Shown one piece after another: positions 13,813 through 41,162 of a DNA stretch of 64,000 nt. Within the stretch, counting starts at the first letter, position 1; the number at the start of each line of letters is the position of its first letter. Made by a program: the position numbers and the translations under genes. The stretch comes from Armatimonadota bacterium. GTDB lineage: Bacteria > Armatimonadota > DTGP01 > JAKQQT01. The stretch lies in the NCBI GenBank assembly GCA_036504855.1, contig DASXUL010000039.1:15582-79581 (forward strand). The letters are read 5' to 3'. Below the pieces are notes generated by a model that saw only the letters and a program-made list of their open reading frames with translations, made no database searches and was not told the origin of the DNA.

Positions 13813-13843
13813 ATGCAGCCTCCTGGGTCTCGGGAAAAGCGAT

Positions 13844-16646: not shown

Positions 16647-17822
16647 CTAGGCGTAGCGCCCGAAATGCTGGATAGCGCTCATCACGAGGCGCATGCCGGT
16701 GAGGCGGGAACCGTCGTTGATGGAGCCGGCGGTGCAGAAGCGGAGCCCCCTGCGCTCTCGAGCCTGCTCGAAATCCCGCAGGAACTCGCGAACGATGTTC
16801 TCCTCCTCGTTGCGGCTGAACGTGAAGGGGGCGAGCTGCCCCTCTATGATGGCGTTGGGGCAGTGCGCGCGGATCTCCGACACGGTCAGCGTTGGCCCGA
16901 AGTTGACGCTCTTCAGATCCAGCCGTCCGAGCAGAGGAAGCAGGTGGCCCATTGCGGAGTCGGAATGCTGGCCGCGCTGGTGTTCGGGAAGAGGCGCGTA
17001 GACGTCCCACATGCCTTTCAAGATGGGGAAGCCGAAGAACTCATAGGTCTTCGCGTTCAGCAGGCAGCAGTTATCGTCCAGGAAATAGAACCCGCGCGGG
17101 CTCGTTTGCGGGGTGAACCCGGCCTCCTCGTCCAGCGTGCGCGCGATGTCCAGCATACCCCGCAAGATCGCGTCGCGGAATCGGGCGGCCAGTTCCGGGT
17201 TGTCCATGATGAGGAACAGAAGATTCTCAACCCCGAAGAGCGACATCGCGAAGGTGACGGGGCCGCGTTGCGCCCGGTAGAGCGGCGGCGGAACGCCCAG
17301 CGCCGATAGCCGCGCCTTCTCTTCGTCCCAATTCTCGGGCAGGATCGCCGCGCGTATGTTCCGCTCCTCCACGCGGTCCAGCAGCTCCTTCAGTTCGTCC
17401 TCCGTATGGACGTTCTGTTCCAGCCACCACGATTGGTCGCGCCAGAGGTTGCGCGCTTCGAAGACGTCCGCCAGCCCTTTCACGGCAGGCCAGCGGCGCG
17501 ATGGGTCGTCGGGCGCGTCGTTCAGCAGGCGTCGCCCCACGATGCGCTCGGCGCGGTCGTTATAGGCGCGGTTGAGGGAGAGGCGCCATTCGTCGTCGTG
17601 TTCATAGCGCCAGAAGTCCATGGGGATGCCCAGTTCGCTCCAGATCGCGTCGCGGGCCATCCAGATGCCCATGGCGACCTGTGGGATCCGCGGGCCGAAC
17701 GGGTCGGCGTTGGCGATATCCTGGTCCGCCCAGAATCGTTCGAGGTCCACGGGAGCGAGGCCGCCATTGCGGCGCGCCCCCTCAACAAGCCAGCGGGCCT
17801 GGCGTTCGTGCTCGGGTGTCAT
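16647..17822 (-). CDS. Uroporphyrinogen-decarboxylase (URO-D) family protein (MtaA/CmuA-like methyltransferase fold)
   Basis: A start at 17822 has GGAGG 10 nt upstream. The protein is about 390 aa with a URO-D-like TIM-barrel pattern (FxxxxxP...LLxxA, C-terminal NFGP...). It is a paralog of 23016..24074. Confidence 0.65.
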   Translation of the reverse strand: MTPEHERQARWLVEGARRNGGLAPVDLERFWADQDIANADPFGPRIPQVAMGIWMARDAIWSELGIPMDFWRYEHDDEWRLSLNRAYNDRAERIVGRRLLNDAPDDPSRRWPAVKGLADVFEARNLWRDQSWWLEQNVHTEDELKELLDRVEERNIRAAILPENWDEEKARLSALGVPPPLYRAQRGPVTFAMSLFGVENLLFLIMDNPELAARFRDAILRGMLDIARTLDEEAGFTPQTSPRGFYFLDDNCCLLNAKTYEFFGFPILKGMWDVYAPLPEHQRGQHSDSAMGHLLPLLGRLDLKSVNFGPTLTVSEIRAHCPNAIIEGQLAPFTFSRNEEENIVREFLRDFEQARERRGLRFCTAGSINDGSRLTGMRLVMSAIQHFGRYA

Positions 17823-21751: not shown

Positions 21752-22915
21752 TCACCTTTTGGGAATCGTCAGCAGATCCCACAGCGCCGAGCCCGGCTCC
21801 AGGCCGCTGATGCGCCGAAGAACGGCGCCGGGTCCGCCTTCGCGGCGCAGGTTCGCAATCTCCATCGACGCGGCGTCGCTTGCGTCCTCATATTCAATCG
21901 CTGCCCGGATGGCCCGGCACACGTTCACGGGCTCAACGCCCTGCCCCATGCACATGCGGGCGGCCCCAATGAGGCGGTCATTTGGGCCGAGCTTGCGGAT
22001 GGGGTCTCGGGCCACGCGCGCCACCTGGTCGCCCAGGGCCTTGTTGTGGAACCGGCGCAGCAGGTCATCCGCGTGGCGATGCAGGTCGCGCAGGTCCAGA
22101 CCATGCCTTCGCGAGAGGCCGAGGCACGTCTCCGCCATCGCGCCGCGCACCACCGGCAGCACGGCGGGGTCCTCTACCGCCTGCCAGATATACGCGTGGC
22201 CGCGGGCGCGGCCCAGGTAGGCCGCGGCGGCGTGCCCGAGGTTATGGACAAAGAGCTTGCGTTCCACGTAGGCGCCGAAATCCGCCTTCGGCTGGAGGTG
22301 CACGATGCTCGGGATAGGCCCCCGGAAACCGGAGGCATCTACCGGAAGCTCGCAGTAGGCCTCCACCTCCACAAGCAGCGGATCCTCGGCGCGGACGGCA
22401 GGGGACATCACCGGGACCATCCGCCCAATGCTGGCCTCCACGAACCCGACCTTCGCGTCCAGGTCCGCATGGAAGCGAGAGTCGAGGCTGCGGCGGACGA
22501 CCTCGCGCATGAACGGCCCGGCGCCAATCATGTTCTCGCAAACGATGACGTCCAGAGGCCGGGCGTCTATACGCTCAAACCGTTGGGCGAGGCCGGCGGC
22601 CAGCGAGGCGCCGATGCGGTCCATCACGGAAACGCCAACCGCGGTGGCGGCGATATCGGCCTCTGCCAGCGCTTCCGAAACGGCCACGAGATTCGATCCG
22701 TGAATCGCCGAGACGTTCCCTATGGCGAGCGTTGTCGTTTGCTCATCCACGATGCGCAACGGGTATTCCCCGCGCGCGTTCAGGGCATCCACAAGCGTCT
22801 GGTCAACGTCGATGAACGTCGTGTGGTAACCCGACTCATAGTAGAGTTGCCCCAGGAATCCCCGGCCGATGTTTCCGGCGCCGAATTGGACCGCGCGCTT
22901 CACAGGGTTTGGCAT
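21752..22915 (-). CDS. Mannitol-1-phosphate 5-dehydrogenase / mannitol dehydrogenase family protein
   Basis: The N-terminus KRAVQFGAGNIGRGFLGQL is the MtlD-type NAD-binding signature, followed by a helical C-terminal domain. Confidence 0.8.
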   Translation of the reverse strand: MPNPVKRAVQFGAGNIGRGFLGQLYYESGYHTTFIDVDQTLVDALNARGEYPLRIVDEQTTTLAIGNVSAIHGSNLVAVSEALAEADIAATAVGVSVMDRIGASLAAGLAQRFERIDARPLDVIVCENMIGAGPFMREVVRRSLDSRFHADLDAKVGFVEASIGRMVPVMSPAVRAEDPLLVEVEAYCELPVDASGFRGPIPSIVHLQPKADFGAYVERKLFVHNLGHAAAAYLGRARGHAYIWQAVEDPAVLPVVRGAMAETCLGLSRRHGLDLRDLHRHADDLLRRFHNKALGDQVARVARDPIRKLGPNDRLIGAARMCMGQGVEPVNVCRAIRAAIEYEDASDAASMEIANLRREGGPGAVLRRISGLEPGSALWDLLTIPKR

Positions 22916-23015
22916 ATTGAAACCGCCCAGTTACGGGCGCCGACAGCGAGTTCGTTCAGTGCTTGTGAGATAAGCAGGGGGCCAGACGTTACCCGCGTCA
23001 GCGGCCGTGGCGGGT

Positions 23016-24074
23016 TCAATAGCGTCCCAGTTCCTTCACAAGGCGGATAATCCGCTGGAAATCGGGGAAGCTCACGCTGTCCGGCACCGAATGGTCCGTG
23101 GAGAAGATGTAGCCGCCGGAACGCTTGAGTTCCGGGAGCACGCGCCGGATCTCGGCTTCCAGGGCATCCACGTCGGTCCATAGCACGGCATTGATGCCGC
23201 CGTGCAACAAGAGGCGGTCGCCATACTCGGCTTTCAGGGCCACTGGGTCCACGCCGGCCTTCACTTCCAGCGGGTTCAGCGCATCCAGCCCGAGGCCCAG
23301 AAGTTCGGGCACGAAGGGGCGGATGTCGCCGCAGGAGTGCATATGTGCAGGGATGCCTTTGGCGTGCGCCCATTCGATGGCGCGCTGATGCACCGGTCTG
23401 AGGATGCGTCGATAGGTGGCCACGCTGAAGAACTGGCTACGCTTATAGCCCATGTCATCCGGCCAGAAGATGCTGTCAAATGTGTAGCCGGCGTCCCACA
23501 CCTGGTCCATGAGGGCGAGGTCCACATCGAGGAAGGCGTTGAAGATGTCCTGGCACCATTCGGGGTCCTCGATGAGCGCGATCAGCGTGCGCTCCGTGCC
23601 CATCGTGTAAGAGTGGGTCACATCGAACCCGAACCACAGGTTGCCCTGAATCCAGCGCCCTTCCTCTCGCCACCTCGGGTAGTTGGCGGCGAGGTAGTCC
23701 CAGTTCACCCGGTCGGAGGTAGGCGTCATCCGGGCCTTGGCGGCCGCCCACGTATCGCGGTCTTTGATGGTGAAGTCGAGGAACTCCGGCACGCCGCCCG
23801 CGTGTCGCCAGTCCTTCAGGGTAGCGCCCCACTGGGTGGTGTGGACCCGATACGCGTCGGTTTCTTCGAGCACGCTCACGGGGTAGCGCGGGCTGTTGTC
23901 TACGTCGATGCCCGCCACGCGGTCCAGGTCCAGGTAATCGGCCCAATCGACGCCGGCGGGGAGGCCCTCGCGCTGCCATCGCTCCAGAGTGGCGCCCCAG
24001 GGCGAGTCTATGATGGGCACGCGGTCCGCCTCCTGATGGGCGAACATCCGACGGAAACGTTCGTGTGTTGTCAT
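23016..24074 (-). CDS. Uroporphyrinogen-decarboxylase (URO-D) family protein, second paralog
   Basis: A start at MTTHERF (24074). It has the same fold pattern as 16647..17822 (ADRVPI, FWPDDMGYK, LHGGINAVL). Its start lies 10 nt after the stop of the upstream ADH. Confidence 0.7.
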   Translation of the reverse strand: MTTHERFRRMFAHQEADRVPIIDSPWGATLERWQREGLPAGVDWADYLDLDRVAGIDVDNSPRYPVSVLEETDAYRVHTTQWGATLKDWRHAGGVPEFLDFTIKDRDTWAAAKARMTPTSDRVNWDYLAANYPRWREEGRWIQGNLWFGFDVTHSYTMGTERTLIALIEDPEWCQDIFNAFLDVDLALMDQVWDAGYTFDSIFWPDDMGYKRSQFFSVATYRRILRPVHQRAIEWAHAKGIPAHMHSCGDIRPFVPELLGLGLDALNPLEVKAGVDPVALKAEYGDRLLLHGGINAVLWTDVDALEAEIRRVLPELKRSGGYIFSTDHSVPDSVSFPDFQRIIRLVKELGRY

Positions 24075-24084
24075 GGATTCGTCA

Positions 24085-25683
24085 TCAGCGCGCGACGCGC
24101 AGCAGTTCATCCTCGGCCTCGCGAGTCCAGCGGCCGTCCTTCAAGAGGGCGGCGACAGATGGATACTTGTCGGGCAAGTGGGACAGGGGAGTGAGCGGCA
24201 GATCGTGAAGCGTCGGATAGACGATGATCTTGCCCGCCAGGGTGCGGTTCTCCACGGCGCTCAACCCTTCCGTGGCGCCGGCCATGCCGCACACCGCGTC
24301 CACCGAGGCTTCGGTCTGGAGGCGTCCCTGGGTCACTTTGCCCAGCACGATGCGCATGTGGTCGGTCTCGGAGCCGGAGGTGCCGAAGAGGAAGACGCGC
24401 TTTTCGATCAGGGCGTCGAGATCAACCTCGTGCTTCACAGGGGCTGGGATGCCGGCGAAGATGTTGATGATGGCGCCCTCGGCGCACTTCTCCACGGCCT
24501 CGGCCGCCAGCGGGGCCAGCGGGGCCATCAGCGCGTAGTACGTGAAGCCGGGATCCAACGGCATGCGCGCCGTGTTCTGCGTCCGGTAGGGGACGCCCGA
24601 ACCTTCCGCCATCGGTCGCGCTTTGCTCGTCAGAGCGCCCAAGCGCGCGTCGTCCATGTCGGCGGCAACCAGCGATATGCCGGGCAGGCCGGAGGTGACA
24701 TCGCGGATCACATGCATCTGACCCATCGGGCCGCCCGCTCCGATTATGACAATGCGGTCGTTCGGTCGAACCTCGCCGGTGGCCGGGATTGTACCGTAAG
24801 AGGCCATCGGATCGCCGCTGGCTGTGCCGATCCAACGCGTTGGGCCGTAGTGGATGCGTCCGAAACCGATGTTGACCTTCCGGCCGATGCGGCGGCCGCC
24901 CAGCACGATGTTGATGATGCCGTGGGCGGCCAGCTTATCGTTCAGCGCCTCGATGACGTCCGCCTCCGCGCCGAAGTACACGATGTCGTCAAACGCCTCA
25001 TCGGGCAGCTTGCGGATATCGAAGGGATGCGTTACGGGCGCGCCCAGCGAGCGGGCGGCGGCGGTTTCCGTTTCGGATACGACCAGCAGGCGCCCGCCGG
25101 AGAGCAGACCCTGGCGCTCGCGCGTTACGTACGAGCATTCCACGCAGGCCCAGGGTTCCACCAACGCCACGGCGGCGCTGCCAAGATCGTCGGCCACGGG
25201 GATCGTGTATCGCGGGTTTCCAGCTTCGTCGGCCATGATGCGCTCATCCAGGAGCACGAATTCCTGTAGCGCTCCCTCGAAGTTGTAGCCGAAGGCGCCG
25301 TTGGAGCCATGAGTGGGCAGGGCGCGGTAGTCCGCCTGCACGATGAAGCGGTCGCCCACGCGATAGTGCTGAACATCCCCGCCGATGGCCGCAACGCGGC
25401 ACACCACTTCGTGCCCGGGCACGGTGGGCTCGGCGCCCGGAACGTAGGACGGGAGCGCGGCGAGGATGTCCGGCGCGATGCCGCCGGTAACCTCGCCCTT
25501 GCGGACGTGCTGCTCGAACTGCTTCAGGAGTTTGAGGTCCGAGAAGCAGAGCCCCACCGCCTCGACGCAAGCCAGGATCTGTCGCCCCACTGGCCGGAAT
25601 ACCTCCTTGGCCGTGTTGAGGGTCAGTTTCCCCGGCCCCACAAGTTGGACGGCATATTGCGTTTCTGGCAGGCTCTCTTGCAT
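24085..25683 (-). CDS. Zn-dependent alcohol dehydrogenase (MDR) family protein with an atypical second Rossmann domain (532 aa)
   Basis: The N-terminus has GHEVVCRVAAIGGDV and a structural-Zn region. A second nucleotide-binding block RIVIIGAGGPMGQMHV appears at about residue 300. Confidence 0.7.
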   Translation of the reverse strand: MQESLPETQYAVQLVGPGKLTLNTAKEVFRPVGRQILACVEAVGLCFSDLKLLKQFEQHVRKGEVTGGIAPDILAALPSYVPGAEPTVPGHEVVCRVAAIGGDVQHYRVGDRFIVQADYRALPTHGSNGAFGYNFEGALQEFVLLDERIMADEAGNPRYTIPVADDLGSAAVALVEPWACVECSYVTRERQGLLSGGRLLVVSETETAAARSLGAPVTHPFDIRKLPDEAFDDIVYFGAEADVIEALNDKLAAHGIINIVLGGRRIGRKVNIGFGRIHYGPTRWIGTASGDPMASYGTIPATGEVRPNDRIVIIGAGGPMGQMHVIRDVTSGLPGISLVAADMDDARLGALTSKARPMAEGSGVPYRTQNTARMPLDPGFTYYALMAPLAPLAAEAVEKCAEGAIINIFAGIPAPVKHEVDLDALIEKRVFLFGTSGSETDHMRIVLGKVTQGRLQTEASVDAVCGMAGATEGLSAVENRTLAGKIIVYPTLHDLPLTPLSHLPDKYPSVAALLKDGRWTREAEDELLRVAR

Positions 25684-25830
25684 ATCACGCTCCTTTGGCG
25701 GGCCAAGGTAAGGGCGGGGCCATTCCGCTCAACACGCCGACATGGAGCGCGGCGGCTTGCCCCCGCTTTCGCTCGGTCCACCCCCGCCCAAAGCGGCGGC
25801 AAGCCGCCGCATTCCATATCGGTTGCCGCG

Positions 25831-27861
25831 TTAGCTCAGCATCACCTGGCCGCCGGTCACCGGCAGGGCCTGGCCGGTTTCGTAGGCCTGGTCCATCAGA
25901 TAGTAAACGGCTTTCATCACGTCGGCCACTGTGCAGCCTCGGCCCATGGGCACTTTGCTCTCGTACGCGCGCTTCACATCCTCAACGGTGTTTGCGCCCG
26001 GGACCTTGCCCGTGCGCAGGTATTGCGCGAACAGGCCGTTAGCGGGGTCCGACCACAGCGGCCCATCGAAGAAGTTGCCGGGGCAGATGGCGTTCACCTT
26101 CACCCCGTCATCCACCAACTCCAGGGCGAAGCTCTGCGTGAGGCCCACTCCGCCGAACTTCCCGCCCGCATACGCGGCGTTTCGATTGCTGCCCACGAGG
26201 CCGGACTTGCTGTTGATCTGAATGATGTCCGCCCACGCGTCCGGCTTGGCCATGTGCTGCACGGCCATCGCCGGGGCCGCCGCCTGCACTCCGTTGAAGT
26301 AGCCAACGTAGTTAACGCGCGTTACGAGTTCGAACTCGGCCTGCGGCTGCGTCTTCACGCTGCCCGCCCGGAGCACGCCGGCATTGGAGATGAGCAGGTC
26401 CAGCCCGCCGTAGACGCGCACCACGGCATGGATGGCGTCCTTGAGGGAGTCACCGGAGGTAACGTCCACGCCGATTCCGATGGCTCGGCCCGGGCCGCGT
26501 TCCTCGCAGAGCTTCGATGCGAGGGCGCAGGCGCCATCCGCGTTCACATCCAGCAGCGCAACGTGCGCGCCCTCGCGGGCGAGGTCCTCGGCAATCCCGG
26601 CTCCGAACCCTTGCGCCGCGCCGGTGACCACCGCAACCTTGCCCGCAGCGCGGCCGGACGGGCCGCTTCCCGCCGCAACCTGGCGACGGTAGCTCTCCAC
26701 TTCCCAGGCGTCGATAAACTTGCGGTCCCGACGCAGCATGTACCGGATCCCGCCCAGCGCGGCGGCGCCTTCCATCACCCGGATGGCGTCGAGGTAGACC
26801 TGCCGGACGGTGTCCGCCGCGGCATAGGAGTCGCCTGCCGCGAAGAGCCCGAGGCCGCGAACCAGGATGACCTTCGGCGGGAAGCCCGTGGCGCGTCCGT
26901 GTTCGGCCACGGAAGTCCGCAGGCGCTCCAGATGCTCGGAGGCGCCCTCACCGGGCGCCGGGTCGAACCACAAGGGGAACGATTTGCAGTAGACGATCTG
27001 ATCCGGCGTCAGCGCGCCGCCAGAGGCAAGGACGTTGCCGTCAATGGCGCCGGCCAGGCTCAACGCCGTGGGTGAATCGTCGAACGTCACCACCTTCAGC
27101 GCGTCGCCCTTCGAGAGCAGACCCCGCAGGGCCGGCGCGAGCACATCGATCAGCCGCCGCGCGGTTCCGCCGGGCACGCGCGATCCCGCCCCGAACCCCT
27201 TCGGGGCCCCGAGCCGCTTTGAGATTGCGTTCAGGATGCGGTCGGTGGCGGCGCGGACTTCATCCGGCGTCTCCCCGCCCACGATGAGGCCGTGGTTGGC
27301 CATGAGGATCGCGTCCGGCCCCGTGCGCCCGGTCCGCGCCGTGTACTCCGCCAGAAGACGTTGCGCCATCGCCGCCAGCGTATAGCCGGGGTCCACGTAT
27401 GGAACCCAGAGGACATCGTCGCCAAAGAGATCGGCGGCGATGGCCTCGCCGTTCACGCAACAGGTCAGCGCGTTCGCCAGGGTGGCGTGGCTGTGGACCA
27501 CAAAGCGCGACGGCAGCAGGTGGTGCAGCGCCGCTTCCACCGATGGTCTCTGCCCCTTCTCGGGATGGATGCGGGCCGCCATCACGGCATCCTTGAAGAC
27601 CCGCTCCCGCTCATTTGGGTCCGCGGGCGGCTCGGCGGCGAGCAGCGCCGAGAGCGCCGCGCGGTCCATCTCCACAAAGCCGTCCTCATCCACGCTCGCC
27701 AGCGCGCAGCCGCTCGCCTTCACGAAGAGACGGTCGGCCGTCTTCAGGGAGGTGTTGCCGCCGCCGGCCAGCACGATATCGGGGCGCGACCCGTAGTAGC
27801 GGGAGAGCGCAATTAGCTGCGCGAGGGGCGTTTGATCCGAAGTTCCTTCTGGCCAGTTCAT
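25831..27861 (-). CDS. Bifunctional class II aldolase/adducin-domain plus short-chain dehydrogenase protein (RhaEW-like rhamnulose-1-phosphate aldolase / lactaldehyde dehydrogenase)
   Basis: About 676 aa. The N-terminal half is an aldolase fold. The C-terminal half is an SDR with GKVAVVTGAAQGFGAGIA and YAGGKFGGVGLTQSFA (the YxxxK motif). The first ATG is at 27861, since the track start at 27864 is a TTG. Confidence 0.8.
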   Translation of the reverse strand: MNWPEGTSDQTPLAQLIALSRYYGSRPDIVLAGGGNTSLKTADRLFVKASGCALASVDEDGFVEMDRAALSALLAAEPPADPNERERVFKDAVMAARIHPEKGQRPSVEAALHHLLPSRFVVHSHATLANALTCCVNGEAIAADLFGDDVLWVPYVDPGYTLAAMAQRLLAEYTARTGRTGPDAILMANHGLIVGGETPDEVRAATDRILNAISKRLGAPKGFGAGSRVPGGTARRLIDVLAPALRGLLSKGDALKVVTFDDSPTALSLAGAIDGNVLASGGALTPDQIVYCKSFPLWFDPAPGEGASEHLERLRTSVAEHGRATGFPPKVILVRGLGLFAAGDSYAAADTVRQVYLDAIRVMEGAAALGGIRYMLRRDRKFIDAWEVESYRRQVAAGSGPSGRAAGKVAVVTGAAQGFGAGIAEDLAREGAHVALLDVNADGACALASKLCEERGPGRAIGIGVDVTSGDSLKDAIHAVVRVYGGLDLLISNAGVLRAGSVKTQPQAEFELVTRVNYVGYFNGVQAAAPAMAVQHMAKPDAWADIIQINSKSGLVGSNRNAAYAGGKFGGVGLTQSFALELVDDGVKVNAICPGNFFDGPLWSDPANGLFAQYLRTGKVPGANTVEDVKRAYESKVPMGRGCTVADVMKAVYYLMDQAYETGQALPVTGGQVMLS

Positions 27862-27880
27862 CAACTTGTTGCGTCCATGC

Positions 27881-29008
27881 TCATAATCCTAGGATTTCGC
27901 GCCCCAACAGCGCCCAGCGGGTGATATCCGGGTCCGCGTTGAAGCCGGGTTCACCGGCGAGAACGGCGCGCTGGTGGGCGGCCAGAACGCATGCGCCTTC
28001 CTCGAAGATCCCGCGGATCGGATCGGGCAGCGGCTCGCGGCCGATGCAGGCTGGGCGCAGCGGGATCATCTCCCGCGTGTTGTGCTCGGTTCCGCCAGTT
28101 ACGATGAAGCCCGCATCTCGCAAGGCGGGAACGTACTCCTCCAGCACGAGGCGGCGGTTGCGCACTGGGATGAACTCCACGGCCCCGATATCCCAACGAT
28201 GGAGCCGCTCAGTCAACCCTTCAACCGGCGCCTCGAACGGGCAGATGGGGCTGGCGCCGTCCGCCAGCACCGGGTAGCACGGGATGCCCCTCATCGCCAG
28301 GACCAGCGCGCGGGCCTCCTCGAAGGAGACGAACCGTTCCTCCACGAAGGCCGGCCGCCCGGCCTTCATCAGATGCGTGCGGATGTCGTTTTGCACCGCC
28401 GCCGCGTCGTCTGGCGCCTTCGGCTCTGCTCCAAGAATCGCGTGCAGCGCTCCGGCCCGGGCGCCAGGCTCGGTAGAGGCGAACAGCGCTTCCTGAAACG
28501 CCTGCGCCACGTGGCGCTCCTGAAGGGTAACCGTATCGCGCGGGCAGCCGTGCCGGGTCACGACGCCGTCAACAATTGCCCCGTCGGTCAGGCCGGTGGG
28601 GAATCCCGCCGTCGTGAACACGGACTCCATGCGCGACACCATCGCGGAGATGCGGCGCGCGTCGCCCTCGCGGATGCCATTCAGCACGCGCGCCGGCTCC
28701 GGCTCGAAAGCGGCGGCGGGGGCGATTCCCTTCCCGCAGACGTAGACCTTGCCGGGGTTGCCGGGGTCGTTCAGCTTCACGCCATCGGCCGCCAGCCGCT
28801 CATCCCGCGCCACGATCTCCATCCCGAACAGCGGGAAGATGCCGGCGCGTTCGGCCCGTTCTGCAAATTCCGCGTAAACGGAGTAATCGTAGTAGTTGCT
28901 GGCCCCGAGCGCGCGGATGCCCTGTTCGGCCGCCAGGCGTACCGCCTGTTCCACGGAATCGAACGCCGAAAAGTTCGGCGGAAGGTGAATGTGGCTGTTT
29001 GAAGTCAT
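27881..29008 (-). CDS. PHP-domain (polymerase/histidinol-phosphatase-like) metal-dependent phosphoesterase
   Basis: The N-terminus SHIHLPPNFSAFDS matches the HxH...D PHP motif. The start codon lies inside the first unit of repeat D and has no Shine-Dalgarno sequence. Confidence 0.6.
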   Translation of the reverse strand: MTSNSHIHLPPNFSAFDSVEQAVRLAAEQGIRALGASNYYDYSVYAEFAERAERAGIFPLFGMEIVARDERLAADGVKLNDPGNPGKVYVCGKGIAPAAAFEPEPARVLNGIREGDARRISAMVSRMESVFTTAGFPTGLTDGAIVDGVVTRHGCPRDTVTLQERHVAQAFQEALFASTEPGARAGALHAILGAEPKAPDDAAAVQNDIRTHLMKAGRPAFVEERFVSFEEARALVLAMRGIPCYPVLADGASPICPFEAPVEGLTERLHRWDIGAVEFIPVRNRRLVLEEYVPALRDAGFIVTGGTEHNTREMIPLRPACIGREPLPDPIRGIFEEGACVLAAHQRAVLAGEPGFNADPDITRWALLGREILGL

Positions 29009-29073
29009 CAGTAATCAGTCGTCAGTCGTCAGTTGTCAGTTCGGACTCAGAACTGATGACTGACGACTGACAA
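29004..29073. repeat. Intra-operon palindromic element D of the 7-mer family (GTCATCA/GTCGTCA ... TGACGAC/TGATGAC)
   Basis: gtcatcagtaatcagtcgtcagtcgtcagttgtcagttcggactcagaactgatgactgacgactgacaac fills the entire 65-bp gap between the E2 stop and the PHP start. Confidence 0.65.
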
Positions 29074-30276
29074 CTACTTCTCCAGCATTTCCTTGAGTCG
29101 GGCCATGAAGCGGGCGGCGAGGAGGCCGTCGATGAGGCGGTGGTCGGCGGAGAGGGTGAGCGTCATCCGATGGCCGGCGCGGATGGCGCCGTCCTTCACG
29201 ACGATGTCCTCGCGAACGGCGCCCACGGCCAGGATGGCGGCTTCCGGCGGGTTGATGATCGCCGAGAACTCCTCAACGCCGAACATGCCGAGGTTGGTGA
29301 TGGTGAACGTGGCCTCGCCGGCGCCCTCCAGCCTGCCGGCGCGGGCGGCCTCCACAATGCGGCGCGTTTCGGCGGCGATGCCCTTCAGGTTTCGGCTGTC
29401 CGCGCCCCTCAGAACCGGCACGGTGAGCCCCTCATCCGTTCCCACGGCGATGCCGATATTCGCCTCGCGGAACGTGACGACGTCATCGCCGTCCACGCGG
29501 CCCCGGAACGCGGGGAACTCGGTAAGGAGGCGGGCACAGGCGTATGTGATGACGTCGTTCAGGCTGCACGGATACACCGCCTTCTCGGCGCGGTAGAACG
29601 CCATCAGCGGCCCCGCGTCGACGGTGAGCTTCACGTAGAAGTGCGGGATGGTCTGCTTGGACGCAACGAGGCCGCGGGCGATGGCCTTCCGCATACGGGT
29701 CATGGGAACGCGCTCGGCCCCCGGCTCCGGCGGTCGCGGGGATCGCGGCTCCGGCTCCGGCTCCGCCGCGGCCTCGTGGACCGCTGCTTCAACATCGGCC
29801 AGCAAGATCCGGCCGCGCGGGCCCGAGCCATGGGCGATGCTCTCCAGGGAAACGCCGCACTGGGCCGCGGCCTTCCGGGCCAGCGGCGAGGCGGCCACGC
29901 GCCCGGACCGCGCGGGTTCCACGGCCGGAGTCCGTTCCCGCGCCGGCGCCTCTCCGGCTACGTTCGGCGCAACGGCCTGCGGCGCTCCGGCGAGGAACGC
30001 GTCCGCCTCGGCGTCCGTCTCGGCCAGAACGCCAACCAGCGATTTCACCGGCAGCGTGACGCCGTCCTTCGCCACGATGCGGGCGAGGCGTCCGGAATCG
30101 GCCGCTTCCACCTCCAGCACGGCCTTGTCCGTTTCCACCTCGAAGAGGATGTCGCCCTTGCGGACCTGGTCCCCCTCGCGGGCCAGCCATCGGACGATGG
30201 TCCCCTCCTCCATGGATTGCCCCGGCTGGGGCATCAGTATCGCCACGGCGCCGCGCGTCTCGGACGGTTGGTTCAT
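29074..30276 (-). CDS. Dihydrolipoamide acyltransferase (E2 component of a 2-oxo acid dehydrogenase complex)
   Basis: A lipoyl domain (EVETDKAVLEVEA), an Ala/Pro-rich linker, an E3-binding domain, and a catalytic domain with DHRLIDG. The start was chosen at MNQPS (30276). The upstream ATG at 30333 would place a palindromic operator-like site in the coding sequence. Confidence 0.8.
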   Translation of the reverse strand: MNQPSETRGAVAILMPQPGQSMEEGTIVRWLAREGDQVRKGDILFEVETDKAVLEVEAADSGRLARIVAKDGVTLPVKSLVGVLAETDAEADAFLAGAPQAVAPNVAGEAPARERTPAVEPARSGRVAASPLARKAAAQCGVSLESIAHGSGPRGRILLADVEAAVHEAAAEPEPEPRSPRPPEPGAERVPMTRMRKAIARGLVASKQTIPHFYVKLTVDAGPLMAFYRAEKAVYPCSLNDVITYACARLLTEFPAFRGRVDGDDVVTFREANIGIAVGTDEGLTVPVLRGADSRNLKGIAAETRRIVEAARAGRLEGAGEATFTITNLGMFGVEEFSAIINPPEAAILAVGAVREDIVVKDGAIRAGHRMTLTLSADHRLIDGLLAARFMARLKEMLEK

Positions 30277-30308
30277 AACGGAAGCCTTTACAAGTTGGTC
30301 GAAGTTTT

Positions 30309-30341
30309 GCACATTATAGACAAACTCTTGCAAGAATGTGC
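30309..30341. promoter_or_regulatory. Candidate operator: a perfect 10-bp palindrome TCTTGCAAGA nested in a 7-bp inverted repeat GCACATT...AATGTGC, in the divergent E2/DeoR control region
   Basis: gcacattatagacaaactcttgcaagaatgtgc. It lies about 30 to 65 nt upstream of the E2 start and about 80 nt upstream of the DeoR-family regulator start. Confidence 0.35.
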
Positions 30342-30347
30342 AGAGAA

Positions 30348-30418
30348 GTCATCAGTTGTCAGTCATCAGTTCTCAGTCCGGACTGACGACTGATGACTGA
30401 TGACTGATGACTGACGAC
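30348..30418. repeat. Palindromic element E of the 7-mer family, centred on cagtccggactg
   Basis: gtcatcagttgtcagtcatcagttctcagtcc | ggactgacgactgatgactgatgactgatgactgacgac. It ends 4 nt before the DeoR ATG. Confidence 0.7.
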
Positions 30419-30422
30419 TCCC

Positions 30423-31208
30423 ATGAGCCTGACCTCCGAACAACGACAGGAAGAGATACTTACGCGCGTGCTGGGTGTGGGGCACGTTGTGGTGAAGGCG
30501 TTGGCCGTGGACATGGGGGTTTCGGAGGCGACGGTGCGGCGCGACCTGCGGGCGCTGGCCGACGCGCGCAAGGTGGAACTGGTGTACGGCGGCGCCACGA
30601 TGCCGCGAACCGCGGACTTCACCGTGCTGGGGCGCGCGCGGCGCAATGTGGAGGCCAAGCGCATTGTGGGACGGCTGGCCGCCGGCCTGGTTCCCGACGG
30701 CGAGATGATGTACGTGGATTCCGGGACCACATGCTTCGAGATGCGCCGCCACCTGATGCAGAAGCGCGGCCTCTCCATCTTGCTGAACTCCACCCGCCTC
30801 GCCATGGAACTGAACGCCGGATCGGACGCCAGCATCGTGCTCCTCGGCGGGCACTACCGGCCTGAGCGCATGGATACCGTGGGCCCGCTGGCGGTGGCGG
30901 CCATCGACCAACTGCGCGGCTACGTGGCCTTCATCGGCGCCGACGGGCTCGACCCGGATTTCGGGGTGACCGCCGACGATATCCAGACCGCGTTCCTCTA
31001 TCAGCACGTGTTAAGGAACGCGCGCGAGACCATTCTGCTGGCGGACCATACCAAATTCCTCTGCCCATCGCTGTATCGCATCTGCACGTGGGACGCCATC
31101 TCCCGCGTGGTCACCGATGTGCGCCCCGACGACGAGTGGGTGGAGTTTCTCAACAAGAACGGCATCGAGCTGATACACGAGATGAACACGGAAGCGCCCG
31201 GCTGCTAG
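30423..31208 (+). CDS. DeoR/GlpR-family transcriptional regulator
   Basis: An N-terminal HTH ([34 protein letters not shown]) and a C-terminal DeoR sugar-phosphate-binding domain. Confidence 0.85.
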
Positions 31209-31231
31209 GCGCCGGCGAACCAGGAAAAACC

Positions 31232-33724
31232 ATGCCCAAATCCCTGATGATCCATCCCACCGATGTCCGCCAGAGCGGATTCGTTGAGTTTTCTCCCATC
31301 CCCATGAACCAGTACGCCGGAACGCTGGCGGAGGAGGCGGCGCGATATGGCGCCGAGGCGCTGGCGCGCATCCACCGCGATATGGCGGTCATCCGCGCGT
31401 TCGAGAGCATGCTCAACGAGGTGAAACTCCAGGGCGCCTACCGGGGCGTGGAGTACAACCACAAGGGCCCGGCGCACCTCAGCATCGGCCAGGAGGCCAG
31501 CGCCGTGGGCCAGGCCTTCCTGCTGGGCGTGGACGACCACATCTTCGGCAGCCACCGCAGCCATGGCGAGATCCTGGCGAAGGGCCTCTCCGCTATCGCC
31601 AAGCTGGATGACGCCGCGCTGATGGGCATCATGGAGTCCTATCTGGATGGGGCCACGTTGCGCGTGGTGGAACGCTCGCGCCCGGATGACCGGGGCATGG
31701 CGGCCAACCCGGTGCAGGCCCTGGCCATCGACTTCCTCCTCTACGGCACGCTGGCCGAGATCTTCGGGCGCGAGGCAGGGTTCAACCGGGGCATGGGCGG
31801 TTCCATGCACGCCTTCTTCACGCCATTCGGCGTCTACCCCAACAACGCTATCGTGGGCGGAAGCGGCGACATCTCGGTGGGCGCCGCGATGTTCAAGCGC
31901 ATCAACCACAAGCCCGGCATCGTCATCTGCAACATCGGCGATTCCTCCGCTGCCTGCGGCCCGGTGTGGGAGGGCCTGGTGCTGGCGAACATGGACCAGT
32001 ACAAGACCCTCTGGGACGAGGCGCATCGGGGCGGCCTGCCGCTGATCATGAACTTCGTTAACAACTTCTATGGCATGGGCGGCCAGCCTGTGGGCGAAAC
32101 CGGCGGCTTCGGCGTGCTGGCGCGCCTGGGCGCCGGACTCTCGCCCACGCAGATGCACGCGGAACGCATCGACGGCTACAACCCGCTGGCCGTGGTGGAC
32201 GCCGTGCGGCGGAAGCGCGACATCATCGAAAGCGGTGACGGCCCGGTCCTGCTGGACACGGTTACCTACCGCTTCAGCGGCCACAGCCCGTCTGACGCAT
32301 CATCCTACCGCGAGAAGTCCGAGGTGGAGGAATGGCAGAGCGTGGACTCGCTGGTGACTTACCGGCGGTCGCTCGAGGAAGCCGGCCTCGCCTCGGAGGC
32401 CGACTTCGAGTGCGTCCAGGAGACCATCAACGCCGCCATCCTCCGCGCCTACAAGAAGGCCATTGACCTGGAGGTCTCGCCGCGCGCCGACCTCTACGCG
32501 GTGGGCAGCCTGCTGGAAACCACCATGCTCAGCAACGTGCGCGTTGAGAGCATGGACCCGACGCGCAAGCCCGAAGTGTTGATGCCGAAGGAGGCCAACC
32601 CGCGCGTTCAGCAGCTTGCCAAGCGCAGCCGCGGCGCGTTTGACGCGGAAGGAAAGCCGCTTCCGAAGAGCAAGTGCATTGGCATCCGTGACGCGCTGTT
32701 CGAGAGCATCCTGGACGCTTTCTACACGGACCCCACGCTGGTTGCCTACGGCGAGGAAAACCGCGATTGGGGCGGCGCTTTCGCCGTCTACCGAGGCCTC
32801 ACCGAGGCGCTTCCCTACCACCGTCTGTTCAACACGCCCATCGCCGAGGGCGCCATTGCCGGCTCCTCCGTCGGTTACGCCCTGGAGGGCGGCCGCGCGC
32901 TGGTGGAGCTGATGTATTGCGACTTCATGGGCCGCGCGGGGGATGAGATCTTCAACCAGATGGCCAAGTGGCAGAGCATGAGCGGCGGCCTGCTGAAAAT
33001 GCCGGTGGTGATGCGCGTCTCCGTGGGCAGCAAGTACGGCGCGCAGCACAGCCAGGATTGGACCAGCATGCCGGCCCATATCCCCGGCCTGAAAGTGGTC
33101 TTCCCCGCGACGCCCTACGACGCCAAGGGCCTGATGAACGCCGCGCTCACCGGTTGCGACCCCGTGATCTTCTTCGAGAGCCAGCGCATCTACGACCAGC
33201 CGGAGCTGTTCCACCCCGGCGGCGTGCCGGCCGGCTACTATGAGATCCCCATCGGCGCGCCAGACGTGAAGAAGCCAGGCTCCGACCTGACCATCCTCAC
33301 CATCGGCGCCGCGCTCTATCGCGCCCTGGAAGCCGCCAAGATCCTGGAGGCTGAGTACGGCATCTCCTGCGAGGTGATCGACGCGCGCAGCATCGTGCCC
33401 TTCGACTATGCGCCCGTGTTGGAGAGCGTGCGGAAGACCCACAAGGTCCTGCTGGTTTCGGACGCCTGCGAGCGCGGCTCGTTCCTGCAGACCATGGCCG
33501 CGAAGATCGGCCAGTTTGCCTTCGACGATCTGGACGCGCCGCCCGTGGTGTTGGGCGCCCGCAACTGGATCACCCCGGCCGACGAAGTGGAAGGCGCCTT
33601 CTTCCCGTTCCCCTGCGATTTCCTGGACGCCGTGCACGAGCATATTCAGCCGCTGCCGGGCTACCAGACGAAGCGGGTCTCCGGCATGGAGGAAATGCTG
33701 CGGAGGAGCCGCCTGGGTATCTGA
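31232..33724 (+). CDS. 2-oxo acid dehydrogenase E1 component with fused alpha and beta subunits (TPP-dependent)
   Basis: A start at 31232 (MPKSLMIHP). The alpha part has GxGxxSxGxxHE-type motifs ([12 protein letters not shown] ... [10 protein letters not shown]) and the TPP-binding [13 protein letters not shown]. The beta part has the transketolase-like C-terminus. Total length is 830 aa. Confidence 0.85.
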
Positions 33725-39374: not shown

Positions 39375-41162
39375 TCACTTTCCGTTGAGCTGCACCGGGA
39401 TCCGAACGCCGGACAGTGATCCCTCATCAGACAGCAGCGGCCACAGATGTTTGGCCGCCAGGACATCGAGCATGTCGCGCGGTATGCCGTCCACGGTGAT
39501 GCGGCGGTCGATGAGGCGGATGCCGTGACTGTAGTCGACGTAGGTGTCTTTGTGGACGGTGGTGAGCGGCTGGATGGGCATGCCGTCGGGAAGACGCCAT
39601 CCGTAGATGGCCACGCGGCGCGGATTCTCCTTCAGGCGCCCGGTCAATACCACATCCTTCTTGATGCCGCACACCAGAGCGCCGAGCGGCTTTCCGGCCC
39701 GCTGGCCCTCGATGATGGCGTTGTGCTGGACGAACGTGGCCACGGCCTCGCGGTCCTGTGTGAGGGGTTTCGGCTCAAGGCGGACCTCGGCGCAGTTGTC
39801 CACGATGTCCACGATGCGACGGGTGGGTAGCGAGCATCCGAAGCCGGCGGCGATCCGCGCGGCGGTCATCGGCGTCATCGGCGCGCGCACCCAGTCCGTG
39901 TCCGTGCCCACCGCGAGGTAGTCCGGCGCCACGCTGAAGGTTGCCGTATGGCGGCGGCCGCGGTCATCCACGCAACTCGTCTCCAGCGTCTTGAACACTC
40001 GTAGGAAGGATGGGATATTGCCCCTCAGGATGGCGTCGCCGATCGCCTGCTCACGCTCCGCCGGCGGCATGGCTTCGATGCGCGCCATGAACGCGGTTCC
40101 GCCCTCCGCGTTCGCCGGCGCCGGAGGGATGGTGGAGAGGGCCAACGTTCCGATGGGGGCGTCGCGCTCGGCGGGTTGAATCCACTTGCCGTAAGCCCGG
40201 TCTCCCCGGTATGTGAAGCCCCTGTGGTAGGGCGTTCCGGCCGTCATGGTTTCCAGGAAGCCGTTGGTCTCCACGAGAACGGTATGCAGGATCTTGTTGT
40301 TCGGGTTCTGGTCCACCAGCAACCGGATGCGGCCGTCCAGTCCGGTTGTTGTCTCAATGTCTCCGGCGCGGGACGTCTGAAGGGGAGTATCCTGGGCAAA
40401 GCGGTTGCGCATCCGGATGGTGGCGCGGAATGTGCCGCCGGTGGGGCCAACCACGGGCTTCCCGTCCAACGTAATGGAACGGTCGTCGTAAGCGAGAACG
40501 ACGAGTTGGCGCGTGGGATCGGCCTTCAGCCATGCCAGCAGCTTGTCTCCGTGGAGGTCTTCATCCGCGTACGAGTAGTTGGCGTCCAGGAAAGCGATTC
40601 GCTCCACCCAGTCCGGGATGGCGTCGCCGCCATTGAGGAACCCGATGAGGAAGGAGCCGCCGCCGCTGTGCCCGGCGAGGGCGACCGTTCGGCGCGGCGA
40701 CGGGAACTTGGCCGCGGCCGCGGCCACGAGGGCGCGGATGCGGGCAGCGTTGTCCGGGTTCCGCGCGCGCCACGCGGGCCAGGACCGCTGATCGGCCTGA
40801 ACGGTAACCAGCGCGATGTTCCGCCCTTTCTCCACGCGGCGGAGCATCCGGGTCTGCGCGGCGATGTGCTGGATGTTGTAGTGCCAGTCCAGCCCGTCGC
40901 GCATTTCGCAGCCGAGAGTCTGCTCAATGGTGTTGCCGTTCGGGGTGGCGAAGAAGATGACGAGGGTGGGGCGAGTGGGGTCGTAGCCGGCATCCGCGTT
41001 GTAGAACACGCGGACGCCGTCGGGAGTGTGCTCCTGCAGGGTCTGCTCTCCCCAGTAGGGGCCCTGGCGAAAGCCCTCCAGCGGCGGCGCCGCGTACGCT
41101 GACGTAGCCGCCGCGGCGAGGATCGCGAGGCAGCCGAGGGACAGGATAGTGTTCATGGACAC
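39375..41162 (-). CDS. Secreted alpha/beta-hydrolase-fold serine hydrolase with a large C-terminal domain of unknown function
   Basis: The signal peptide is MNTILSLGCLAILAAAATSAYA. The nucleophile elbow is LAGHSGGGSF (GxSxG). The protein is 595 aa. Confidence 0.6.
   Translation of the reverse strand: MSMNTILSLGCLAILAAAATSAYAAPPLEGFRQGPYWGEQTLQEHTPDGVRVFYNADAGYDPTRPTLVIFFATPNGNTIEQTLGCEMRDGLDWHYNIQHIAAQTRMLRRVEKGRNIALVTVQADQRSWPAWRARNPDNAARIRALVAAAAAKFPSPRRTVALAGHSGGGSFLIGFLNGGDAIPDWVERIAFLDANYSYADEDLHGDKLLAWLKADPTRQLVVLAYDDRSITLDGKPVVGPTGGTFRATIRMRNRFAQDTPLQTSRAGDIETTTGLDGRIRLLVDQNPNNKILHTVLVETNGFLETMTAGTPYHRGFTYRGDRAYGKWIQPAERDAPIGTLALSTIPPAPANAEGGTAFMARIEAMPPAEREQAIGDAILRGNIPSFLRVFKTLETSCVDDRGRRHTATFSVAPDYLAVGTDTDWVRAPMTPMTAARIAAGFGCSLPTRRIVDIVDNCAEVRLEPKPLTQDREAVATFVQHNAIIEGQRAGKPLGALVCGIKKDVVLTGRLKENPRRVAIYGWRLPDGMPIQPLTTVHKDTYVDYSHGIRLIDRRITVDGIPRDMLDVLAAKHLWPLLSDEGSLSGVRIPVQLNGK

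Follow-up and report, generated by a model that had tools for sequence, protein, structure and literature searches.

A conserved operon in Armatimonadota and other phyla

A 64,000-nucleotide stretch of contig DASXUL010000039.1 from an Armatimonadota bacterium (the whole stretch is called the window here) carries, between its positions 21752 and 33724, eight genes that bring together parts of a 2-oxoacid dehydrogenase complex and enzymes of sugar metabolism. They encode a fused E1 alpha/beta chain (E1ab), an E2 acyltransferase, a DeoR-family regulator, a PHP-like protein, a class II aldolase fused to a short-chain dehydrogenase/reductase (SDR), a zinc-dependent medium-chain dehydrogenase/reductase (MDR)-like protein, a URO-D-family protein, and an MtlD-like dehydrogenase. 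What lies here is the form that a widely conserved operon takes in Armatimonadota. We propose that this DeoR-controlled operon degrades a phosphorylated 6-deoxyhexulose, the methyl end of which would be turned into a methyl-ketol and cleaved to acetyl-CoA in the style of acetoin dehydrogenase. To this reading, whose chemistry we infer, we give slightly less than an even chance.

Related loci were collected with the gene for the 532-amino-acid (aa) MDR-like protein as the anchor. Twenty-eight homologues were aligned, genome contigs were scanned, and one genome was kept per species. The best 80 loci of the contig scan were retained, and the window proteins were searched against all of their open reading frames (ORFs); counts for each gene take only loci with enough flank to judge that gene (informative loci). 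The 80 loci come from metagenome-assembled genomes (MAGs) of Planctomycetota, Verrucomicrobiota, Lentisphaerota, Fibrobacterota, Acidobacteriota, Sumerlaeota, and Armatimonadota. An SDR or aldolase-SDR was present in 55 of 60 informative loci, the PHP-like gene in 49 of 57, a gene for the E3 lipoamide dehydrogenase in 42 of 52, E2 in 41 of 50, a DeoR gene next to E1ab in 41 of 50, and the fused E1ab in 41 of 48. Wherever the flank allows it to be seen, the recurrent order is E1ab and DeoR, divergent from E2, E3, PHP-like, SDR (with or without aldolase), and MDR-like. The E1ab copies of this operon in different phyla are 69 to 77% identical. Unbiased clustering of the neighboring ORFs added one further frequent family, a 420-aa protein with only a Mannitol_dh_C domain, encoded downstream of the MDR-like gene. 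These data establish that the core gene set is conserved in at least six phyla, beyond chance. Because the order recurs across phyla and E1ab is so similar among them, the core is a genuine, mobile, and strongly constrained operon.

A first-pass annotation, made from the letters of the window and their translations, had read these genes as one functional unit and held that a neighborhood conserved in no related genome would leave that reading unsupported. The comparison was run, and for the core that outcome decisively failed to appear: E1ab, DeoR, E2, PHP-like, aldolase/SDR, and MDR-like are syntenic across phyla. The eight genes themselves are also real. The G+C content of the window is 64 to 69%, and a filter on third-position GC (GC3) leaves one clear gene per stretch. 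Between 21752 and 33724 this filter selected exactly the eight genes that had been listed before, at the same coordinates, all with coding-type GC3 (0.81 to 0.87) and with families confirmed by Pfam and NCBIfam. A 66-kb metagenome contig at JGI carries the identical sequence, and an Armatimonadota MAG at NCBI encodes identical proteins.

A full-text search of the literature turned up no account of the operon or of the PHP-like and insert-bearing MDR families, and the papers found on the plasmid pRL8 and on Limisphaera do not discuss these genes. Operons for sugar catabolism that combine known superfamilies are of a familiar kind. As far as we found, the combination of genes is new, and a complex of the acetoin type linked to sugars would be new as well.

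The arrangement differs in some related loci. On a contig of a second organism from the same metagenome (Ga0376481_000128; locus L010, 2538-12880), the operon lacks E2, E3, and URO-D, and the insertion of a Y1 transposase separates E1ab from DeoR, which suggests a modular, mobile cluster. In the Planctomycetota MAG129 (locus L009, 2012-13805), an MDR-like gene with 57% identity lies in an alternative context, with an aminotransferase, an aldolase of the FSA/transaldolase family, a PfkB kinase, a URO-D-like protein, two GlcD-like FAD oxidases, and a XylA2-like isomerase. This context may serve a related, perhaps D-series, deoxy sugar.

Enzymes encoded by the operon

The E1ab gene (31232..33724, plus strand) encodes an 830-aa protein with E1_dh, Transket_pyr, and Transketolase_C domains and is co-directional with the DeoR gene; an 878-aa ORF overlaps DeoR, and the 830-aa form was used. 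The E2 gene (29074..30276, minus strand, from the JGI gene call) encodes a 400-aa dihydrolipoyl acyltransferase with lipoyl, E3-binding, and catalytic domains, and a longer ORF extends to 30333. E1ab contains the His loop of E1 alpha (YRFSGHS) and a variant thiamine pyrophosphate (TPP) motif, GDS-x37-NN with GDS in place of GDG. E2 has ETDKA as its lipoyl-lysine motif and DHRLIDG as its catalytic motif. Both proteins miss the cut-offs of the NCBIfam pyruvate dehydrogenase (PDH) models: E1ab scored 233.9 against 321 for E1 beta and 179.7 against 393.85 for E1 alpha, and E2, with 231 bits in Pfam, reached 311.6 against 445 for its best model, TIGR01349. At residues about 235 to 280 of E1ab, the spacer of the TPP motif measures some 37 residues and contains an insertion relative to the usual GDG-x(22-28)-NN, and an N-terminal extension of roughly 100 aa precedes the E1_dh domain.

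The first-pass annotation had found no E3 in the window, and this was borne out both by tblastn with a bona fide lipoamide dehydrogenase (Lpd) of a related locus (E <= 1e-3) and by Pfam scans of the 46 ORFs of the GC3-supported set. In related loci, the gene between E2 and PHP-like encodes a bona fide dihydrolipoyl dehydrogenase (TIGR01350, 491 bits, above the cut-off of 409). E1, E2, and E3 are not encoded jointly in the window as they are in those loci, and another Armatimonadota locus (L050) likewise has no E3 in its operon. Absence of E3 is a feature peculiar to the operon as found in Armatimonadota, and here E3 must come from elsewhere in the genome.

The context of E1ab points to a specialized E1 for a sugar-derived ketol and not to a housekeeping pyruvate dehydrogenase. 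The Fibrobacteria loci and L010 keep E1ab without E2 and E3, and some loci have genes for lipoate ligase or synthase joined to the operon, with lipoate-protein ligase in three of them; together, these features indicate a specialized rather than a housekeeping E1. Close relatives of E1ab within a plasmid collection were limited to three fused genes, on Rhizobium johnstonii pRL8, Agrobacterium pAt15955, and a Pleomorphomonas plasmid, which are 52 to 55% identical over 97 to 98% of the length. On these plasmids E1ab is followed by a lipoyl-domain-only protein, an alpha/beta-hydrolase matching AcoC, the acyltransferase of acetoin systems (NF011457, 153 bits), and a SorC-family sugar-phosphate regulator (R. 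johnstonii 3841 pRL8, L091, 14001-19649; L092, 8366-14534; L093, 10001-17047). The alphaproteobacterial clusters also carry xylulokinase- and fructokinase-like kinases, a psicose-3-epimerase-like protein, a polyol dehydrogenase, sugar ABC transporters, and LipA; no pyruvate-forming enzyme and no aldolase able to yield pyruvate was found in them. They are thus an acetoin-dehydrogenase-like system set within sugar and polyol genes of cultured, genetically tractable bacteria, and no study of these E1ab-lipoyl-AcoC clusters was found in the literature.

Relative to unfused Aco-type E1 proteins, E1ab is 32 to 34% identical. Its nearest unfused relatives are an AcoC-linked pair in Aminobacter and a set of E1, E2, and Lpd in Brevibacillus that is linked to phosphotransferase system (PTS) sugar genes and SorC. 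The AcoC-linked orthologues without a pyruvate source, the Aco- and PTS-linked unfused relatives, and the retention of E1ab without E2 and E3 are the reasons for reading E1ab as specialized. The acetoin-dehydrogenase analogy that had been drawn for the E1/E2 pair in the first-pass annotation is supported by the AcoC-type partners on the alphaproteobacterial plasmids. The dedicated E1 and these AcoC-linked orthologues argue against pyruvate as the physiological substrate. A paper on the E1p of Geobacillus stearothermophilus defines no substrate-discriminating E1 positions. Acetol, methylglyoxal, and lactaldehyde were considered as direct E1 substrates and ruled out on chemistry, since formaldehyde or formate would be released or toxic intermediates would arise. 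Another sugar-linked complex, of the 2-oxoacid/acetoin-dehydrogenase-like kind, is encoded on a Brevibacillus laterosporus plasmid (L096, 521-11910), where E1 alpha, E1 beta, E2, Lpd, and a SorC-type regulator are immediately preceded by genes for PTS IIA, IIB, and IIC and for a 911-aa protein that carries the annotation PTS IIA subunit.

The aldolase-SDR gene (25831..27861, minus strand) encodes a 676-aa protein with the two-domain architecture of RhaEW, an N-terminal class II aldolase (Aldolase_II, residues 16 to 207) and a C-terminal SDR (adh_short, 409 to 597). It had been called RhaEW-like. The architecture and the aldolase catalytic residues support that label, but the score against the RhaEW equivalog TIGR02632 (293.5 bits) is below the cut-off of 567.75, the best PRK08324 submodel gave 308.8 against 1014, and the SDR half is nearer to sorbitol-6-phosphate dehydrogenase (NF009050, 227 bits; PDB 5o3z, 165 bits; acetoin reductase models, 131 bits). 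The protein is therefore, as judged by model scores, RhaEW-like and not a RhaEW equivalog. An SDR-only protein at locus L073 behaves in the same way, with about 228 bits for the sorbitol-6-phosphate dehydrogenase model versus about 143 for the model containing RhaW. Among 48 fused homologues, the aldolase-domain elements GGGNTS, S108-x-E110, H124-x-H126, and N190-H191-G192 show conservation of at least 96%. Assignment of this domain as an AraD-like 4-epimerase is less likely, since it retains the phosphate loop and a catalytic Glu of the FucA/RhaD type. The SDR is fused to the aldolase in 49 of 73 loci and stands without it in about 14; at L073 and L058 the aldolase is a separate downstream gene.

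Pfam detected only an ADH_N domain (40 bits) in the 532-aa MDR-like protein (24085..25683, minus strand). More than 5,500 homologues at 55 to 67% identity are found across phyla, and C46, H91-E92, and G315-A-G-G-P-M-G321 are invariant among the 28 aligned homologues. The AlphaFold2 model (predicted local distance difference test [pLDDT] score, 85) has a zinc-MDR fold with about 170 inserted residues that form a second Rossmann-like subdomain. Its best Foldseek matches were carbonyl reductase 3wlf, threonine 3-dehydrogenase 5kia, and 2R,3R-butanediol dehydrogenase 6ie0, with template modeling (TM) scores for the target of 0.70 to 0.79; a PDB sequence search gave marginal matches only. With a GroES-like domain, zinc ligands, and a Rossmann glycine motif, the protein is predicted from the model to be a zinc-dependent MDR. 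The enzymes it matches in structure (butanediol dehydrogenase, threonine 3-dehydrogenase, diol/ketol carbonyl reductase) act on CH3-CHOH- groups. Source names of homologues are of the generic "alcohol dehydrogenase" type or automatic JGI names such as threonine-dehydrogenase-like or "L-sorbose 1-phosphate reductase." The plasmid collection held one distant MDR-like homologue only, in Deinococcus. There (Deinococcus sp. AJ005 p380k; L094, 11105-15859), an SDR, an MDR-like protein (30% identical, with the same insert-bearing architecture), an FGGY kinase, and a GntR regulator lie together, divergent from genes for a mannose-6-phosphate-isomerase-like protein, an AGE-family epimerase, a ROK protein, and a sugar ABC transporter. 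The SDR-MDR-kinase trio thus exists as a module without aldolase or E1.

The PHP-like gene (27881..29008, minus strand) encodes a 375-aa protein of a family without annotation. The first-pass annotation had called it a PHP phosphoesterase. Its Pfam score against PF02811 (23.6 bits, covering only the N-terminal 63 residues) is below the gathering score of 26.4, and no NCBIfam model matched. The fold, in contrast, favors that assignment. An AlphaFold2 model built from 32 homologues (pLDDT, 90.3) matched 3e0f, 2yb1 (Cv1693), and 9etk (RNase AM) in Foldseek with a probability of 1.0, E values of 1e-9 to 1e-11, and TM scores for the target of 0.67 to 0.73; these are PHP phosphoesterases of the TrpH/YciV/RNase AM type. 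N4, H6, H8, E64, H166, E308, H309, and H345 are invariant and include the N-terminal HxH. The protein is therefore a predicted metal phosphoesterase-like member of the PHP superfamily by fold only. Nearly all of its more than 2,500 homologues are unnamed or "hypothetical," and none is listed with a precomputed Pfam domain; one JGI entry reads "predicted metal-dependent phosphoesterase TrpH." PDB searches with the sequence and with the family profile gave marginal matches only, and no homologue was found in the plasmid collection.

The MtlD-like gene (21752..22915, minus strand) encodes a 387-aa protein resembling mannitol-1-phosphate 5-dehydrogenase, with Mannitol_dh (150 bits) and Mannitol_dh_C (98 bits) domains; its best equivalog score (NF002652, 318.5) lies below the cut-off of 356. 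An MtlD-like gene is directly downstream in 26 of 71 loci. Close homologues, however, are confined among the 80 loci to three from Armatimonadota (L010, L050, and L051), and the protein at the same position outside this phylum is the distant 420-aa Mannitol_dh_C-only protein. The gene that the first-pass annotation had listed is present, with both domains; it does not belong to the core.

Candidate substrate, pathway, and alternative explanations

Accessory genes are the only direct hints at the substrate. RhaA (L-rhamnose isomerase, 681 to 694 bits) is encoded at L073 and L079, and clustering places a member of the family at L090; at L079 its gene comes immediately after E1ab and is read from the same strand. 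FGGY kinases resembling rhamnulokinase follow the MDR-like gene in 10 loci (the L073 kinase scored 571, above the cut-off of 528), a FucI-like gene is found in 3 loci, and a KpsF/GutQ-type sugar-phosphate isomerase is found in 7. One locus (L068) is a single-strand operon of a sugar-binding protein, a URO-D-like protein, a kinase, a RhaI-like isomerase, PHP-like, aldolase, SDR, MDR-like, E2, E3, E1ab, and a HAD phosphatase. A minority of the related loci (L048, L068, L073, L079, and L090) carry genes of rha type with the operon. The deoxy-sugar substrate suggested in the first-pass annotation gains from the RhaA, rhamnulokinase-like, and FucI-like genes that are joined to the operon in these genomes.

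The DeoR-family regulator (30423..31208, plus strand) contains HTH_DeoR and a DeoRC sensor domain (140 bits in Pfam), and its nearest NCBIfam models are GlpR, AgaR, and SrlR. DeoR-family regulators usually sense sugar phosphates. Because of the RhaA, kinase, and FucI-like genes and the sensing of sugar phosphates by DeoR proteins, L-rhamnulose-1-phosphate or L-fuculose-1-phosphate is the most likely input. The KpsF-type genes of 7 loci and the MtlD-like genes of 26 of 71 loci imply sugar-phosphate intermediates beyond dihydroxyacetone phosphate (DHAP).

In the pathway that we propose, the dehydrogenases would oxidize the deoxy-sugar phosphate at the end that bears its methyl group, giving a methyl-ketol (CH3-CO-CHOH-R). 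E1 would split this ketol as acetoin dehydrogenase splits acetoin, passing the C2 unit to lipoyl-E2 to give acetyl-CoA and, via E3, NADH, and the phosphorylated remainder would enter central metabolism. Two variants can be written. In variant (a), the MDR would oxidize C5 directly and E1 would then cut between C4 and C5; the SDR would oxidize the released aldehyde, as RhaW does lactaldehyde, and the aldolase-type domain would yield DHAP and CO2, as OtnC does with 3-oxo-tetronate 4-phosphate. In variant (b), a flip of the SorE/SorD kind, the MDR would reduce C2 and the SDR or the MtlD-like enzyme would oxidize C5 to give a 1-deoxy-ketohexose 6-phosphate; E1 would cut this into acetyl-CoA and a tetrose 4-phosphate, which a KpsF-like isomerase could process. 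Both variants would bypass free lactaldehyde. For the enzyme itself, it is a possibility, somewhat further below an even chance than the pathway as a whole, that E1ab and its alphaproteobacterial orthologues are acetoin-dehydrogenase-like enzymes that cleave a 1-deoxy-2-ketose omega-phosphate after C5 oxidation by MDR and SDR, giving acetyl-CoA and DHAP or a tetrose phosphate; the literature searched contained no account of such an enzyme.

Known systems supply parts of this scheme. The L-sorbose pair SorE (sorbose-1-phosphate reductase, an MDR) and SorD (glucitol-6-phosphate dehydrogenase, an SDR) resembles the MDR and SDR adjoining a sugar kinase, and its logic, reduction of C2 and oxidation of C5 of a ketose-1-phosphate, would give a 1-deoxy-ketose-6-phosphate from a 6-deoxy sugar. 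However, the MDR homology to SorE rests on the JGI names of a few homologues, the MDR here has a large insertion, and the Sor pathway stops at fructose-6-phosphate and has no E1 or E2. In the Lsr degradation of phospho-autoinducer-2 (LsrK/LsrG/LsrF), a phosphorylated 1-deoxy (methyl-ketone) sugar is converted to acetyl-CoA and DHAP, and OtnC, a 3-oxo-tetronate-4-phosphate decarboxylase, is a class II aldolase-family protein that releases DHAP by decarboxylation. Both are analogies without a claim of homology, and LsrF is thiolase-like and not a TPP/lipoyl enzyme. The Planctomycete/Verrucomicrobia microcompartment (pvm) pathway shares with the operon its phyla, probably its sugars, a DeoR regulator (PvmA), and the lactaldehyde problem. 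Unlike that pathway, the operon encodes neither shell proteins nor the set of aldehyde dehydrogenase, phosphotransacylase (PTAC), and kinase, and it would be a noncompartment alternative.

Several observations weigh against the proposed pathway. The aldolase keeps the three His zinc ligands of DHAP aldolases, the catalytic Glu, and the phosphate loop, and the usual aldolase-SDR fusion is exactly that of RhaEW; the best-scoring hidden Markov models and PDB matches of E1 and E2 are of the PDH type. Identity of 52 to 55% to the AcoC-linked E1ab proteins does not guarantee the same substrate. Kinase and isomerase genes accompany the operon in a minority of loci and not in the window, where tblastn found no RhaA, RhaB, or FucI. 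Variant (a) accounts for the aldolase-SDR fusion but not for the MtlD-like or KpsF-like genes; variant (b) accounts for those genes and leaves the aldolase domain without a role; and neither explains the PHP-like protein. We infer the substrate, the sequence of steps, and the chemistry of cleavage from these pieces.

The retained aldolase residues fit more simply with a pathway in the classical order that ends in a private PDH. Here, the RhaEW-like protein would yield DHAP and L-lactaldehyde and then L-lactate, the MDR would form pyruvate (or would instead reduce lactaldehyde as a redox valve), and E1ab, E2, and E3 would convert pyruvate to acetyl-CoA and CO2, with a net stoichiometry equal to that of variant (a). 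The intact residues, the fusion in 49 of 73 loci, the PDH-type matches of E1 and E2, the RhaA and RhaB genes attached in some loci, and, at L009, the FSA-type aldolase and GlcD-like lactate-oxidase-type genes beside the MDR-like gene are all consistent with it. So is the precedent of RhaEW itself, whose successive aldolase and lactaldehyde dehydrogenase activities are proven and whose genes lie in DeoR-type rha operons (PMC3870299). The likeness to rhaEWRBMA-type L-rhamnose operons (Bacillus subtilis YuxG; Chloroflexus Caur_2283; regulator RhaR) extends to the aldolase-SDR fusion with its zinc ligands and catalytic Glu, the DeoR-family regulator, and the RhaA and rhamnulokinase of some related loci. 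The operon differs in adding E1ab/E2/E3, an MDR of 530 to 560 aa, and a PHP-fold protein, none of which was found in descriptions of the rha regulon, and in having no RhaA, RhaB, or RhaM in the window; its fusion protein misses the equivalog, with an SDR nearer to sorbitol-6-phosphate dehydrogenase. In the same way, E1, E2, and E3 share with the PDH complex (heterotetrameric E1) their domain architecture, best model and structure matches, and intact catalytic motifs, but all PDH equivalog cut-offs are missed, E1 is fused and bears an N-terminal extension and a TPP-motif insertion, and the complex is embedded in a sugar operon and regulated with it. Pyruvate is a central metabolite, so a private PDH under sugar-phosphate regulation is hard to rationalize; some operons keep E1 alone; and the alphaproteobacterial orthologues of E1ab have AcoC-type partners and kinases without a pyruvate-forming enzyme. 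The bacteria that carry these orthologues presumably already possess a chromosomal PDH. None of the equivalog cut-offs for PDH, RhaEW, and MtlD is reached; this order gives no role to the PHP-like, MtlD-like, or KpsF-like genes; and we know of no precedent for an MDR acting as an L-lactate dehydrogenase. We consider this order of steps, the main rival of the proposed pathway, the less likely of the two, with something under one chance in three in its favor.

The other readings are far less probable. An ordinary acetoin/2,3-butanediol cluster, with AcoAB and AcoC plus butanediol and acetoin dehydrogenases and with the sugar-type genes as chance neighbors, would agree with the MDR fold (2R,3R-butanediol dehydrogenase), the 131 bits of the SDR against acetoin reductase models, and the Aco-type relatives of E1. 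A TPP E1, a lipoyl E2, and E3 beside a diol/ketol-type MDR and an SDR do recall AcoA/AcoB/AcoC/AcoL. The E1 here is a single fused chain, however, the regulator is of the sugar-phosphate DeoR type and not AcoR/sigma-54, and the SDR scores 227 bits with sorbitol-6-phosphate dehydrogenase. The conserved genes of the operon include those for a PHP phosphoesterase and for a class II aldolase that has a phosphate loop, rhamnulokinase and RhaA share transcription units with it, and these partners indicate a phosphorylated sugar; acetoin itself is an unlikely substrate, and the cluster as a whole is very unlikely to be of this kind. Just as improbable is a hexitol- or ketohexose-phosphate cluster (mannitol, sorbitol, or sorbose type) that lies by chance beside an unrelated 2-oxoacid dehydrogenase. 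The MtlD-like score of 318 bits, the resemblance of the SDR to sorbitol-6-phosphate dehydrogenase, the "L-sorbose 1-phosphate reductase" names, and the Deinococcus SDR-MDR-FGGY cluster without E1 would suit it. Against it, E1ab is syntenic with the MDR-like gene in 41 of 48 loci across phyla, a normal hexitol pathway stops at fructose-6-phosphate and needs no TPP/lipoyl enzyme, and the close MtlD homologue is found in Armatimonadota only. A pathway for a methylated sugar or polyol centered on one or more corrinoid methyltransferases of the URO-D family has an equally slim likelihood. Its support comes from an invariant H-x-C like that of the MtaA/MetE zinc sites, from the overlap of the gene with the MDR-like stop codon, by which the two are predicted to be cotranscribed, and from distant URO-D-like genes at L068 (the same operon type) and near the MDR-like gene of L009. 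It is countered by the absence of the window subfamily from all 80 loci, by the unrelated sugar contexts of close Clostridia homologues, and by the lack of a corrinoid protein among the 46 scanned ORFs, of a convincing MtaA/CmuA match, and of a second URO-D gene (see below).

If the acetoin-dehydrogenase-style pathway is correct, it would matter beyond these genomes. Fucose and rhamnose are major units of algal, plant, and bacterial polysaccharides, and Planctomycetota, Verrucomicrobiota, Acidobacteriota, and Armatimonadota, the carriers of the operon, are main degraders of these polymers in soil and sea. All known fucose and rhamnose routes pass through toxic lactaldehyde, for which bacteria of the Planctomycetes-Verrucomicrobia-Chlamydiae (PVC) group need a microcompartment. 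The operon would provide a lactaldehyde-free alternative and a new branch of 6-deoxy-sugar catabolism, would widen the reaction scope of 2-oxoacid/acetoin dehydrogenase complexes to sugar phosphates, and would give first functions to the PHP-like and insert-bearing MDR families. Even under the conservative reading, the labels "PDH," "alcohol dehydrogenase," and "hypothetical" in genome-scale models misassign a dedicated pathway.

The URO-D-family protein, intergenic elements, and neighboring genes

The URO-D-family gene (23016..24110, minus strand; 352 to 364 aa) matches PF01208 with 52.6 bits over its C-terminal half only (residues 167 to 360) and scored 18.7 against a cut-off of 235 for the MtaA/CmuA model TIGR01463; a PDB sequence search gave marginal matches only. 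H258-S-C260 and D339-H340 are invariant in the family, without a second invariant Cys, and by analogy are reminiscent of the zinc sites of MtaA and MetE. The family has more than 4,000 homologues, with 66 to 73% identity in Armatimonadota, Clostridia, and Brocadiia. Relatives lie beside AraC, GFO/IDH/MocA, and ThuA genes in Clostridium thermosuccinogenes and beside GH92 and DUF4838 genes in Caldanaerobius, and members of the family are at L003 (10001-11068) and L006 (516-1583). The family is unusually conserved and always in carbohydrate contexts; the protein is probably a zinc-dependent sugar-modifying enzyme.

The subfamily was found together with the operon only on the contig of the window and on a near-identical contig. 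Distant URO-D-like genes were found in 2 of the 80 loci (L030 and L068, 59 and 83 bits); a distant form (26% identity) lies inside the operon at L068 and another adjoins the MDR-like gene at L009. The gene is a recurrent accessory that was inserted in this lineage and not part of the core. The first-pass annotation had made it a member of the pathway with a possible corrinoid partner and a methylated substrate. Its subfamily is missing from the related loci, its close relatives serve other sugar contexts, no corrinoid or B12-binding protein is encoded by the 46 scanned ORFs, and nothing beyond the HxC motif speaks for a methylated sugar. The second URO-D paralog that had been placed at 16647-17822 (minus strand) gave no Pfam match even at E = 10, a BLASTP E value of 0.4 against the URO-D-like gene, and an hhalign probability of 1.6% against its family profile, so that the sequence does not support it as a URO-D protein. 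This 391-aa ORF has good coding GC3 and no Pfam family and is conserved on a sister contig next to NamZ.

A sigma-70-like promoter match (TGCACA-18-TATAAT; 30313..30342, minus strand) was found upstream of the E2 start in a consensus scan. It agrees at 10 of 12 positions and is the sole such site in 12.9 kb, where 1.4 are expected by chance, so that it is weak evidence. A palindrome built of heptamers (30347..30419; 33-nucleotide arms, 88% complementary) ends 3 nucleotides before the DeoR ATG, and a similar element resembling repetitive extragenic palindromes (REP-like) lies inside the operon between the E2 stop and the PHP-like start (29008..29070). Such (ACTGAYG)n elements are also present at 6887-7032 and 10662-11157. 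They are dispersed REP-like intergenic palindromes made of tandem (ACTGAYG)n and its complement, with 25 matches to ACTGAYGACTGA (at most one mismatch) versus 0.19 expected. A role of the palindrome upstream of DeoR as a specific operator was ruled out, since copies of its heptamer element are scattered through other intergenic stretches.

The genes that flank the operon encode GNAT acetyltransferases, an M48 peptidase, NamZ, a methyltransferase, an S13 DD-peptidase, pilin-like proteins, and sigma and anti-sigma factors and are unrelated to sugar metabolism. Three minus-strand genes of the window (39375-41162, 50504-53023, and 12767-13450) encode proteins of 595, 839, and 227 aa with a good coding signal and no Pfam family; the 227-aa protein is encoded among type IV pilin-like (N_methyl) and DUF7305 genes that are clustered at 11394-14488.

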